Below, in pieces: positions 5,953-8,151 of a DNA stretch of 64,000 nt. This stretch comes from an uncultured Chloroflexia bacterium. GTDB lineage: Bacteria > Chloroflexota > Limnocylindria > QHBO01. Location of the stretch: contig CAVYGE010000002.1 of assembly GCA_963767985.1 (NCBI GenBank), positions 457,217 through 521,216 on the forward strand, in the 5' to 3' direction. Below the pieces are notes generated by a model. That model searched no databases. It was not told the DNA's origin and saw only the letters and a program-made list of their open reading frames with translations. The number at the start of each line of letters is the position of its first letter. Within the stretch, counting starts at the first letter, position 1. The position numbers were made by a program, and so were the translations under genes.

Positions 5953-6832
5953 ATGGCGTTCCCCGGCATCGGCATCGCGAAGGGCATGGCCACGACCTTC
6001 CGGAACTTCTTCGCCCCGAAGGTGACGCGGCAGTACCCCGAGGAGCGACCGGAGATCCCGGACCGCTGGCGGGGACGCCTGGACCTGATCTACGACCCCT
6101 TCGGCGAGCACAAGTGCGAGGTGTGCTTCCAGTGCGCGCAGGTCTGCCCGGTCGAGGCCATCGACATGAGCGGGTTCGACTCGCACGGGCAACCGGATCC
6201 GCTACGGCATGCCGGAGATCTACGACGAGCGCAAGGATCCGAACGCCTACCGGCGCGCGGGCCTGGCGGCTCAGCCGATGCGCAACGCCGCGCGGTGGGA
6301 TGAGGAAGTTGATACGCCCTGGGTGGACGGCGTGGTCGAGGCCTTCGGCGGCCGGCCCGAGGCGCTCGTCGCCATCTTCCGCGCCATCGAGGAACGCTAT
6401 GGATACCTCCCGGAGCAGGCGCTGCGCCGCGTCAGCGACCGCATGACGATCCACTGGGCGCAGGTCTTCGGCGCGGCGGGCCTCGGGGGCTTCCGGCTCC
6501 TGCCGACGGCGGGCCACATCGTGACCGTCTGTGACTGCGCCGCCTGTCGCTTCGCGGGCGGAGATCGCCTGCTGGCCGCGATCGAACGGGAGCTCGGCAT
6601 CCGGGCCGGCGAGTCGACGCCGGACGGCGGCTTCACGCTCGAGACCCGGTCCGACGTCGGGTCGGGCGCGATCAGCCCGGCCATGCGGATCGATACGCTG
6701 GTGTACGGGCCGCTCGACGAGGAGAAGGCTCTTCACATCGTCGAGGAGCGTCGTCAGCCGCCACGGCCGGCAGCGGCGCCTGAGAATGGCCAGCACGCTC
6801 TCTCCCCAGATCCGGATCCTCGAAGGCGGTGA
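5953..6832 (+). CDS. nuoI: NuoI N-terminal half (one CxxCxxCxxxCP motif only) running, after an apparent 1-nt frame change at the GGG run 6187-6189, into a NuoE-like thioredoxin-like ferredoxin domain
   Basis: 5953-~6190 encodes ..VTRQYPEERPEIPDRWRGRLDL..KCEVCFQCAQVCPVEAIDMSGFDSHG, a classic NuoI N-terminus. The next frame continues NRIRYGMPEIYDE.. and then ..LVAIFRAIEERYGYLPEQALRRVSDRM..HIVTVCDCAACRFAGGDRLL..GESTPDGGFTLETRSDVGSGAISPAM.. (NuoE-like). If the sequence is correct as given, the two parts are separate ORFs (5953..6303 and 6209..6832). Confidence 0.75.
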
Positions 6833-8151
6833 GTCGCGCCTGCTCACCGATATCGGGCGGGTCGATCCCTCGACCCTGGCGAGCTATCGCGAGCTCGGCG
6901 GCTACGCCGGACTCGAGCGCGCGATCACCAAGCTGGCCCCGGAGGAGGTGATCCTCGACATCGAGGCGGCGAACCTGCGCGGCCGTGGCGGATCGGGCTA
7001 CTCGACCGCGGCCAAGTGGCGCGTCGCGCGCGATGCGGCCGGCGACCGCAAGATCGTCGTCGCCAACCTCATGGCCGCCGATCCGAGCGCGCTCGGCGAT
7101 CGGGCGCTGGCCGAGGGCAATCCGCACCTCGTCGTCGAGGGACTCGTCATCGCGGCCTACGCGGTCGGCGCGAGTGAGGCGATCATCGCCGTGCGCCGGG
7201 ATTGGCCGCTGGCAATCGACCGGCTGCGGACCGCCGTCCGCGAGGCGAGCGACGCCCATCTCGGCGGCTACCTCGTGCTCGGCACCGACGTCAGCGTCCA
7301 GCTCAGCGTGTGGGAGGGATCCGGCGCCTACGTCGCCGGCGAGGAGACGGCGCTGATCAATGCCCTGTCCGGCGATCGGGGCATGCCACTGATCCGGCCG
7401 CCCTACCCGGCCGAGCGCGGCCTCGACGGCGCGCCGACCGTCGTCCAGAACGGCGAGACCCTCGCCCACGTGGCGTGGATCATGGCGCACTCGCCCGAGG
7501 CGTTCGCGTCGGTCGGGCGGCGAGGCCAGCCGCGGGACGAAGCTCGTCACGATCATGGGTCGCGTGGGCCAGGCCGGCCTGGCCGAGGTCCCGCTCGGCA
7601 CGCCACTCATCGATCTGCTCGGCCTGGCCGGTGGCGGGACGGGAACGACCAAGGCGCTGTTCATCGGCGGGCCCGGAGGCGGCGCCGTCGATGCGGGGTC
7701 ACTCAATCTCCCATACGACTACGACTCGCTCGAGGGTGCCGGTGCCATCGTCGGATCGGGCTCGGTGCTCGTGACCGACAGCGACACCTGCATGGTCGAC
7801 ACGGCACGCTTCTTCATCGACTTCAACGCGCGAGAGGCGTGCGGCAAGGCGGTGCCGTGTCGCATCGGCACGAAGCGGCTGGTCGAGACCATGGACCGCA
7901 TCCTCGCCGCAACGCCACGACCGAACGACTTCACCCTCCTGCGCGAGCTGTCGCGCAAGGTCTCCGATACGGCGCTGTGCAAGCTCGAGCGCCTGGCATC
8001 AGGACCGATCCTGACGACGCTCGACCGCTTCGGCGACGAGTACCGGGCGCACGCCGAGCGCGGCGAGTGCCTGGCAGGCGCATGCCGCACCGACGGCGTC
8101 CACCCCCTTCTCGAGCCACTCGCCGGAGTCGATCCGGCGGACGGCGCTTAG
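6786..8151 (+). CDS. NuoF-like (51-kDa-like) subunit, divergent cofactor motifs (apparent frameshift ~7525-7536)
   Basis: ATG 6786 overlaps the NuoE-like ORF end. Motifs: ..NLRGRGGSGYSTAAKW.., ..GSGAYVAGEETALINALSGDRGMPLIRPPYPAERGL.., then after a frame change ..GTKLVTIMGRVGQAGLAEVPLG.., ..EACGKAVPCRIG.., ..ALCKLERLA... Confidence 0.8.

Follow-up and report, generated by a model that had tools for sequence, protein, structure and literature searches.

Family-wide changes at the canonical cofactor ligands of NuoE-like and NuoF-like proteins in a complex I operon of the Limnocylindria

Few known redox sites are as strongly conserved as the flavin site of complex I and its clusters N3 and N1a. 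In the NfnABC/Stn transhydrogenases the corresponding core is the flavobicluster B1-FMN-C1, and the B2 site has a 3Cys1His ligand set (PMC11829005). In the Bfu family, BfuB carries a B3/B4 ferredoxin domain and an N-terminal B5 domain, and BfuBC holds six conserved clusters; Nuo-Bfu complexes have been predicted in Deferribacteres, Proteobacteria, Planctomycetes and Nitrospirae, with NADH and ferredoxin as proposed donors (Schut et al. 2022, PMC9304861). In the NuoEF of Aquifex, a hydrogen bond couples the Glu95 peptide of NuoF to the N1a ligand Cys127 of NuoE, and the N1a/Glu95 loop of canonical NuoEF acts as a redox switch (PMC6560083). Literature searches on Limnocylindria complex I, and on split NuoI together with NfnB, did not turn up the feature reported here.

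The window (the whole stretch of DNA that was analysed, 64,000 nucleotides) contained the following features:

5953..6195, + strand: NuoI N-terminal half with the first C-x2-C-x2-C-x3-CP motif (Pfam Fer4; positions 1-72 of 121 of the NCBIfam NuoI model)
6209..6832, + strand: NuoE-like (BfuC-like) protein, thioredoxin-like [2Fe-2S] ferredoxin domain (PF01257, 86.8 bits)
6527..6547, + strand: VCDCAAC, first Cys pair C108 and C113 with the extra Cys C110 (alignment)
6650..6667, + strand: SDVGSG, place of the second N1a Cys pair (HMMER alignments, 35-residue spacing rule)
6786..7530, + strand: NuoF-like (BfuB-like) N-terminal part, FMN/NADH-binding domain (PF01512, 120.7 bits; ATG at 6786)
7059..7103, + strand: VANLMAADPSALGDR, altered flavin-site loop, canonically CNADEGDPGAFMDR (alignment to solved homologues)
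7531..8151, + strand: remainder of the NuoF-like protein (PF10589, 79.5 bits, and SLBB; HydB alignment, E 2e-50)
7840..7860, + strand: CGKAVPC, N3/B1 motif with the middle Cys changed to Ala (alignment; Ala codon GCG at 7849-7851)
7969..7986, + strand: TALCKL, retained fourth N3/B1 Cys at 7978-7980 (HydB alignment; invariant across the class)
8050..8085, + strand: HAERGECLAGAC, H-x4-C-x3-C (aligned with H...C-P-A-G-x-C of HydB; conserved in the family)
8171..10557, + strand: NfnA/StnC-like subunit fused to the NuoI C-terminal half (Pfam; NuoI model positions 71-112)

Alignments showed that HydC/NfnC were the best solved homologues of the NuoE-like protein and that the N-terminal part of the NuoF-like protein matched NfnB/HydB at E 1e-66. 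Thermus thermophilus Nqo1/Nqo2 and E. coli NuoE/F also matched, ranking under the five best alignments. By sequence, the pair most resembles the BfuB/BfuC core of the NfnABC/Stn transhydrogenases, and this core fitted better than the respiratory NuoE/NuoF with which the original prediction had compared it. The NuoF-like protein scored above the Pfam cut-offs for PF01512 (31.2 bits) and PF10589 (23.5 bits), as respiratory NuoF does, and missed the NuoF equivalog cut-offs (TIGR01959, 337.6 against 558.65 bits; NF010120, 255 against 389), the NCBIfam scores being those of an intact orthologue (L024). The NuoE-like protein contained PF01257, yet reached only 65.4 bits with TIGR01958 (cut-off 142.4).

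The NuoF-like protein has 456 aa and aligned only to residues ~106-530 of the 584-630-aa BfuB chains. It ends about 20 residues past H-x4-C-x3-C and thus has no B3/B4 ferredoxin domain; neither the N-terminal nor the C-terminal cluster domain of BfuB was found in the alignments, and a ferredoxin-binding domain was absent from the module by sequence. The BfuB domain set and the six BfuBC clusters that mark the Bfu family are thus incomplete here. The H-x4-C-x3-C stretch is possibly the retained structural Zn (B2) site, on a putative residue mapping. Ligands were mapped with the Bfu-type chains and the published numbering for C. saccharolyticus (Csac) NfnB and Aquifex NuoEF.

At the N1a/C1 site, VCDCAAC aligned with the C-x4-C of HydC/NfnC-type chains, and the first Cys pair was present as predicted. 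The extra middle Cys, C110 (C-x-C-x2-C), was invariant in all Limnocylindria members possessing the NuoE domain, while outside the class this position was Gly in 19 of 20 homologues and Ser in the other; C110 is a clade-specific gain. In 20 unfused NuoE homologues of other Chloroflexota, C-x3-C started exactly 35 residues past C-x4-C. The corresponding residue in the window is D149, and D149 and G153 (D149-V-G-S-G153, 6653-6667) occupy the canonical C-x3-C positions. No Cys was found at the second N1a pair in any register of the alignments to solved homologues, so that only the first pair of the respiratory pattern (C-x4-C, 35 residues, C-x3-C) remains. The predicted absence of Cys there was correct, but the predicted S-DVG-S register was off by one. 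Ligation of N1a by the two Ser was rejected because the register is D/G and neither S148 nor S152 was conserved among relatives. The D149 position was acidic (Asp or Glu) in 13 of 15 family loci; on this count a firm claim of a Cys3Asp cluster was downgraded. That the putative fourth ligand is not universal also counts against the explanation preferred below.

At the N3/B1 site of the NuoF-like protein, alignment bore out the predicted change of the middle Cys to Ala and the retention of the fourth Cys, and three of the four Cys of C-x2-C-x2-C...C were present. In the flavin loop, which had also been predicted to be altered, the counterpart of ANLMAADPSAL in the solved Bfu-type homologues was CNADEGDPGAF; numbered as in Csac NfnB, D183 has become M, E184 has become A and G188 has become S. 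The loop reads NLMAADPS, where respiratory NuoF has NADE(S/G)(E/D)PG. It was kept as NLM[AG]ADP[ST] throughout the family, with Asp and Glu replaced in every member. All three sites of the canonical flavobicluster were thus altered, and from the Glu95-Cys127 coupling in Aquifex the two altered loops would touch.

Several genes in the window were frameshifted as assembled. The junction of the NuoI N-terminal half and the NuoE-like gene was broken by a +1 insertion at ~6181; in relatives (L022-L024) the two are fused in frame. Frame comparison showed a further indel near 6754, which probably falsifies the C-terminal tail of the NuoE-like protein; the real stop codon is probably the TGA of 6781-6783, and the NuoE-like proteins of relatives end at ~190 aa. 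The NuoF-like frame was lost at ~7517-7530 (net +1 relative to relatives) and is a single frame in 19 relatives. The NfnA-like gene was broken by a +2 insertion at 8468, and NuoC, intact in relatives, was frameshifted in the window only, at 3311. Similar breaks lay in unrelated genes at ~30.33, 45.1, 50.68 and 57.93 kb, which, with the intact relatives, points to assembly indels.

These breaks are what would suggest that the ligand substitutions are sequencing errors or that the genes are decaying pseudogenes in this organism, and we consider either very improbable. The substitutions were found again in all relatives, among them short-read assemblies in which the ORFs are single and intact, and the Ala codon is at least two base changes away from TGY. 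Among the other assemblies of the genus, those that had few contigs and low completeness were broken up at different places. The dN/dS values were far under 1, at ~0.13-0.26 for the I~E fusion and 0.20 for the NuoF-like gene, similar to those of NuoL/M/N.

The ligand changes are fixed across the family. The Ala at the middle N3 position was invariant in 19 genus-level genomes, 15/15 family loci and 120/120 close orthologues. The motif was recognisable in 139 representative homologue clusters; 134 of them had the Cys, and the only exceptions were this clade (Ala) and one sister cluster (Ser). In the sister families the position was Thr, Ser or Cys. In the tree, Cys was the ancestral state and there were two losses, one to Ala on the f1 stem, a long branch, and one to Thr/Ser within f3/f4; on this reconstruction the loss in the split-nuoI sister families is independent. 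The original prediction had asked whether split-nuoI orthologues share the replacements: they do for Ala within the family and in part, through Thr and Ser, in the sister families, but the Ser pair of the NuoE-like protein is not conserved. At each of the N3/B1 and N1a/C1 sites, three Cys were invariant across the class members with the domain. The canonical ligands are therefore absent, as predicted, but "lost" overstates the case. With invariant and gained Cys, conserved new motifs, kept NADH contacts and low dN/dS, the sites look remodelled under selection and not decayed.

Much of the nucleotide-binding region was retained. GRGGSGY (6981-7001) and GSGAYVAGEETAL (7317-7355) were conserved, in agreement with the original prediction, and NNVET reads QNGET in the window. 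The GRGG, the Gly-rich loop, GEET and GxGxY survive in this family, in which the Tyr of the Gly-rich loop varies (Y/L/M). Compared with NfnB, the NADH-contact residues were kept or conservatively replaced (Phe159 to Tyr, Lys164, Gly156, Glu274, Phe294 to Tyr, loop 3). These retained features make a working flavin/NADH site with altered chemistry possible and count against the explanation preferred below. The pair could then be an active second entry, with flavin and NADH oxidation via a three-Cys N3, and this complex I would take both NADH and NADPH as donors or work as a quinone-linked enzyme of a transhydrogenase-like kind. Purifying selection, the three invariant Cys per cluster site and the absence of any other NuoF from the genome would agree with this. 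We nevertheless regard it as unlikely, although worth serious consideration, because the flavin-loop Asp/Glu are gone from every member, the Gly-rich Tyr varies, NNVET is altered and the same Cys was lost twice. In the sister families, moreover, the Gly-rich loop has degenerated, in some cases together with GRGG, and the domain that binds the NuoE cluster can be deleted, the whole of it being missing in some f3 genera. The E and F proteins were also the fastest-evolving and least conserved subunits of the operon between families (37-48% identity, against 51-88% for the others).

The neighbouring NfnA-like subunit offers an alternative electron entry. It consists of a 2Fe-2S N-terminus, an NfnL/GltD-like FAD-NADPH domain, 4Fe-4S clusters and then the NuoI C-terminal half. 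It matched 9bov_A, 8oh5_C and 9n5u_A end to end (residues 37-758 against 9bov_A, E 3.7e-168); 31 of its 34 Cys were invariant across the class, and two dinucleotide motifs and YRR were kept. As in NfnABC/Stn-type modules, an iron-sulfur protein of the NuoG/Fdh-like type carries the NfnL/GltD-like FAD-NADPH domain as an insertion. The electron path of Csac NfnABC runs FAD-A7-A6-A3-A2-A1 to [B1-FMN-C1] (PMC11829005), so that B and C lie beyond A1. The NfnA-like subunit is the probable electron entry of this complex, and electrons probably enter this complex I elsewhere than at the NuoE/NuoF-like pair.

The explanation that we hold with moderate confidence, as a reading of the sequences, is that the remodelled pair lies off the electron path. 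The NuoE-like and NuoF-like proteins would have their origin in the BfuC/BfuB core of an NfnABC/Stn-type module, grafted into complex I in the class Limnocylindria by splitting nuoI. Each of the three cofactor sites at the former flavin centre has been rebuilt in the family: N3/B1 retains three Cys (C-x2-A-x2-C...C), a pattern classical for a [3Fe-4S] or a three-Cys [4Fe-4S] cluster; at N1a/C1 the first Cys pair remains, a third Cys has appeared within it and Asp/Glu stand at the old second pair; and the Asp and Glu of the flavin loop are gone. NAD(P)H would be oxidised at the FAD of the NfnL/GltD-like domain, and electrons would pass along the iron-sulfur chain of the NfnA-like subunit to the two reunited NuoI halves, N2 and quinone. 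The pair would be a side branch off the 2Fe-2S cluster, structural or auxiliary in redox terms. It may serve mainly as a scaffold, with the NuoE-like protein covalently tied to the NuoI N-terminal half, and possibly with a residual high-potential cluster and nucleotide pocket. The fixed changes and purifying selection indicate that the proteins are in use, but in a role other than that of a canonical NADH dehydrogenase or a bifurcating core. The presence of a single NuoF, a single NuoE and a single NuoD locus in the genome also speaks for this explanation. The prediction that the module is not a standard NADH dehydrogenase is partly supported: the canonical ligands are absent throughout the family, the scores lie under the NCBI family cut-offs, the two subunits evolve fastest between families and the conserved neighbouring subunit offers another entry.

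The tightly conserved replacement motifs suggest a new function and not mere scaffolding, which also counts against the off-path explanation. These motifs, and a conserved nucleotide pocket beside an altered flavin loop, would suit a non-catalytic sensor or brake, in which NADPH-driven turnover is gated by bound NAD(H) or by the redox state of a high-potential three-Cys cluster; the N1a/Glu95 loop is a redox switch already in canonical NuoEF (PMC6560083). We think this improbable: some sister genera have no NuoE cluster domain, which speaks against essential sensing throughout the class. It is conceivable, but rather doubtful, that the flavobicluster was converted to a new kind of regulatory or electron-buffering module with a [3Fe-4S]-type N3, a re-ligated [2Fe-2S] and a flavin-poor NAD(H) pocket, gating an NADPH-driven proton pump. 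The [2Fe-2S] would there be re-ligated by the gained Cys and Asp/Glu (or His in the sister families), and the module might sense the NAD+/NADH or quinone-pool state.

The Limnocylindria are abundant uncultured Chloroflexota, and the family is common in soils and fresh water. The whole family keeps both subunits while every canonical ligand set around the flavin has changed, which provides a natural experiment on the purpose of N1a, N3 and the NADE loop, and on the dismantling of an electron-bifurcating module once rewired to a membrane complex. The data support the reading of a complex I fed by NAD(P)H via a GltD/NfnL-type FAD domain. Automatic annotation labels the proteins NuoE and NuoF and would thereby mislead metabolic models of Limnocylindria.

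Among known systems, NfnABC/Stn (C. saccharolyticus NfnABC, 9bov; S. ovata Stn, 8oh5; archaeal Nfn-Bfu, 9n5u) provided the best solved homologues of both proteins and shared the layout of the third subunit from the 2Fe-2S N-terminus to the 4Fe-4S clusters, as well as the H-x4-C-x3-C stretch of the Zn (B2) region. However, the B-like protein here is without the N-terminal thioredoxin-like domain and the C-terminal B3/B4 ferredoxin domain, B1 has three Cys, C1 is without its second Cys pair and the flavin loop is altered. The subunits are also joined to halves of NuoI and encoded within a nuo operon, and the NuoI C-terminal half stands in the place that the Fdh-like pterin domain has in NfnA.

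In the [3Fe-4S] sites of ferredoxins, succinate dehydrogenase and NiFe-hydrogenase small subunits, the second Cys is replaced by a non-ligand residue (C-x2-X-x2-C...C); N3/B1 of the NuoF-like protein shares this pattern, a likeness in motif alone. NqrA of Na+-NQR keeps a NuoF/RnfC-like fold in a respiratory complex without redox cofactors and is a precedent for a scaffold role, although in an unrelated complex.

In the predicted Nuo-Bfu complexes, too, a BfuABC-like module replaces NuoEFG midway through the complex I genes, but with a complete BfuBC core; an NfnL-like domain, split NuoI and ligand loss were not described there (PMC9304861). Respiratory NuoE/NuoF (Nqo2/Nqo1, Aquifex NuoEF) share the Pfam domains, the overall length of the F-like protein, GRGG, the Lys, the Gly-rich loop, GEET, the first N1a Cys pair and three of the four N3 Cys. 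Compared with them, the pair here falls below the NCBIfam cut-offs, has neither the middle N3 Cys nor the second N1a pair nor the NADE-loop Asp/Glu, and carries an extra Cys in the first NuoE motif.

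The window has a G+C content of 70% and carries a complex I operon whose genes are broken as assembled. Indels were located by comparison with the closest relative, G017 (87% DNA identity).

1991-17184, + strand: complex I operon, in the order nuoA, B, C, D, H; nuoI N-half; NuoE-like; NuoF-like; large NfnA-like gene; nuoJ-N
2511: frame-changing insertion in nuoB
3311: frame-changing insertion in nuoC
6181: frame-changing insertion at the NuoI(N)/E junction
about 7517-7530: frame-changing insertion in the F-like gene
8468: frame-changing insertion in the NfnA-like gene
17048: frame-changing insertion in nuoN

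The large gene encodes an N-terminus of NuoG type (2Fe-2S), an FAD-NAD(P)H domain resembling that of GltD/NfnL, two 4Fe-4S motifs and the NuoI C-half; positions 1-72 of the NCBIfam NuoI model were matched by the first NuoI piece and positions 71-112 by the last. The genome (7 contigs, 84% complete) had a single NuoF, a single NuoE and a single NuoD locus, so the window operon is its only complex I. Judged by the organism names attached to close orthologues, the DNA belongs to Candidatus Limnocylindria (Chloroflexota). The spacer between the NuoI C-half and nuoJ (10558-11180 in the window; 9397-11362 in locus L023 of a relative) varied from about 0.6 to 2 kb among relatives, and in the window it contained a small ORF on the opposite strand (10612-10974).

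A further frame-changing insertion near 6754 probably alters the tail of the E-like protein. In relatives these genes were intact single ORFs, with NuoI(N) joined in frame to the E-like part. Unrelated genes of the window were split likewise at ~30.33, ~45.1 (45100-45170), ~50.68 and ~57.93 kb; judged against intact orthologues, frame-changing insertions occurred about once per 6 kb, inside and outside the nuo operon. Same-genus assemblies of few contigs and low completeness were fragmented at other positions. The likeliest source of the window frameshifts is consensus indel error in a long-read assembly with 7 contigs and 84% completeness.

The window proteins were aligned to solved structures with phmmer. 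The original prediction that the E-like protein had kept the first Cys pair of its N1a site and lost the second held, VCDCAAC pairing with the C-x4-C of HydC/NfnC chains and no Cys falling on the second pair in any register. Its placement of the second pair on S-DVG-S was off by one, because the 35 residues between the first pair and the start of C-x3-C, constant in 20/20 unfused NuoE homologues of other Chloroflexota, lead to D149; the C-x3-C of HydC/NfnC chains aligned with D149-V-G-S-G153. In the F-like protein, the proposed change of the middle N3 Cys to Ala was borne out (CGKCxPC of homologues against CGKAVPC), and the fourth Cys was retained (TALC). The flavin loop was altered as suggested, from CNADEGDPGAF in homologues to ANLMAADPSAL, and NNVET became QNGET; GRGG and the Gly-rich loop were conserved as predicted, together with the Lys and GEET.

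Relatives were checked for the same replacements, and all 19 same-genus genomes (71-91% protein identity; the count takes in G006, locus L014, flagged as unpublished) had the same states, as did 14 loci from other genera of the window's own family, f1 (66-79% identity). The loci fetched from those other genera for comparison of residue states came exclusively from genomes without the unpublished flag; tallies of further genomes include the flagged G144, G118, G178, G109, G113 and G133, and no claim depends on flagged genomes. In the protein collection, C-G-K-A-[VIL]-P-C occurred in 120/120 close orthologues. The window clade formed one full-length cluster among the 50%-identity representatives, the next matches dropping to ≤46% identity. 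Among the 139 best representative clusters with a recognisable motif, 134 had the middle N3 Cys; Ala was found only in the window clade and Ser in one sister cluster. In pairwise comparisons of three intact orthologous operons, the NuoI(N)~E fusion gave a dN/dS of 0.13-0.26, F 0.20 and NuoL/M/N 0.15-0.35. The substitutions shared across relatives and the low dN/dS values show that the substitutions are fixed and the genes under purifying selection. An artefact or a pseudogene is a very improbable source of the substitutions, given these values for the fusion and F, the identical states in all relatives examined within the family and the Ala codon (GCG), which differs from Cys codons at two or more bases.

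Three families of the class, f1 and the sister families f3 and f4, share the NuoI(N)~E fusion and the full operon order, and NuoE-like matches elsewhere in the phylum were unfused. Of eight sister-family loci examined, two had Cys and six had Thr at the middle N3 position, with flavin loops such as NG[YI]EADPG and NGYGADPA. In the maximum-likelihood tree every outgroup had Cys at this position, the Cys-bearing sister loci adjoined the Thr/Ser group (support 100/99), and the Ala family lay on a long stem (100/100); the tree thus implies two or more losses of the N3 ligand. Short NuoF-like clusters with the canonical Cys (P0132, P0152 and P0176; 440-456 aa) branched as sister to the Limnocylindria clade.

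The first NuoE motif was C-x-C-x2-C in all class members possessing the domain, and its middle residue outside the class was Gly (19/20) or Ser (1/20). The second-pair position was Asp/Glu in 13 of 15 f1 loci, and the sister families had a conserved His adjacent to it. Two sister-family operons, L025 (G040:C19) and L028 (G090:C9), had the full C-x2-C-x2-C...C of N3 and Glu in the flavin loop; their NuoE-like proteins had four Cys, namely C-x-C-x2-C and one Cys at the second-pair position, followed by His. Both operons resemble an intermediate step in the remodelling. Several sister genera lacked the thioredoxin-like cluster-binding domain of the NuoE-like protein. In L029 (G030:C1) and L030 (G096:C1) the fusion ended after the N-terminal helical part, and G081, G075, G084 and G064 of the same sister family gave partial matches. 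E (37-48% between-family identity) and F (39-46%) were the fastest-evolving operon subunits, against 83-88% for NuoB, 58-63% for NuoD and 56-59% for the NfnA-like subunit.

The altered sites are not simply dead. Each cluster site had three invariant Cys, and the new motifs were tightly conserved. C-x2-A-x2-C...C is a classical [3Fe-4S] pattern, and the Cys gained beside a lost Cys recalls ligand swapping in thioredoxin-like ferredoxins; judged from these motifs, the F-like protein may carry a [3Fe-4S]-type site and the E-like protein a cluster with swapped ligands. H-x4-C-x3-C (8050-8085) and the TCMVD Cys, conserved class-wide unlike the redox-cofactor ligands, aligned with the structural Zn (B2) region of HydB/BfuB. 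The predicted loss of standard NADH dehydrogenase function stands in part, such function being very unlikely, with the correction that the module is selected and remodelled, not decayed. The NADH-contact residues of Csac NfnB (Gly156, Phe159, Lys164, Glu274, Phe294 and loop 3) were kept or conservatively replaced in the F-like protein; a still-active, unusual NADH site is possible and rather unlikely. A sensor role for the pair is unlikely.

The pair probably forms a structural or auxiliary redox branch lying off the path of electrons, which would enter through the NfnL-like FAD domain. Across the class, 31 of the 34 Cys of the NfnA-like subunit were conserved, as were its two dinucleotide motifs and a YRR stretch; YRR suggests NADPH, as in GltD/NfnL enzymes. 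In Csac NfnABC, NADPH electrons pass along FAD-A7-A6-A3-A2-A1 to the flavobicluster B1-FMN-C1, and A2-A4-A5 is a dead-end branch toward a vestigial pterin site (PMC11829005). In the Limnocylindria enzyme the NuoI C-half takes the place of the pterin-side end of the A subunit, and a branch of the A2-A4-A5 type could plausibly deliver electrons to N6a/N6b, N2 and quinone. B1-FMN-C1 would then be the dispensable end of the chain, which would explain why exactly the three former bifurcation-site cofactors are altered. In Aquifex NuoEF, the NuoF Glu95 peptide is hydrogen-bonded via water to NuoE Cys127, an N1a ligand (PMC6560083); by this analogy the altered flavin loop and second Cys pair are spatial neighbours and may have changed together.

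The E-like and F-like proteins were nearest to the C and B subunits of Bfu-type enzymes (HydB/HydC, NfnB/NfnC, Stn), and respiratory NuoF/NuoE were more distant (FMN domain, E ~1e-50 versus 1e-66); the F-like protein scored below the NCBI NuoF cut-offs and the E-like part below those of NuoE. Residues 37-758 of the NfnA-like subunit aligned end to end with C. saccharolyticus NfnA (NfnABC) and S. ovata StnC (E 4e-168); where NfnA/StnC continue with an Fdh-like domain, the window's subunit has the NuoI C-half. BfuB has an N-terminal thioredoxin-like domain and a C-terminal B3/B4 ferredoxin domain, whereas the F-like protein has neither. Judged by the features that define the Bfu family (PMC9304861), the F-like protein is a derivative of that family and not a member.
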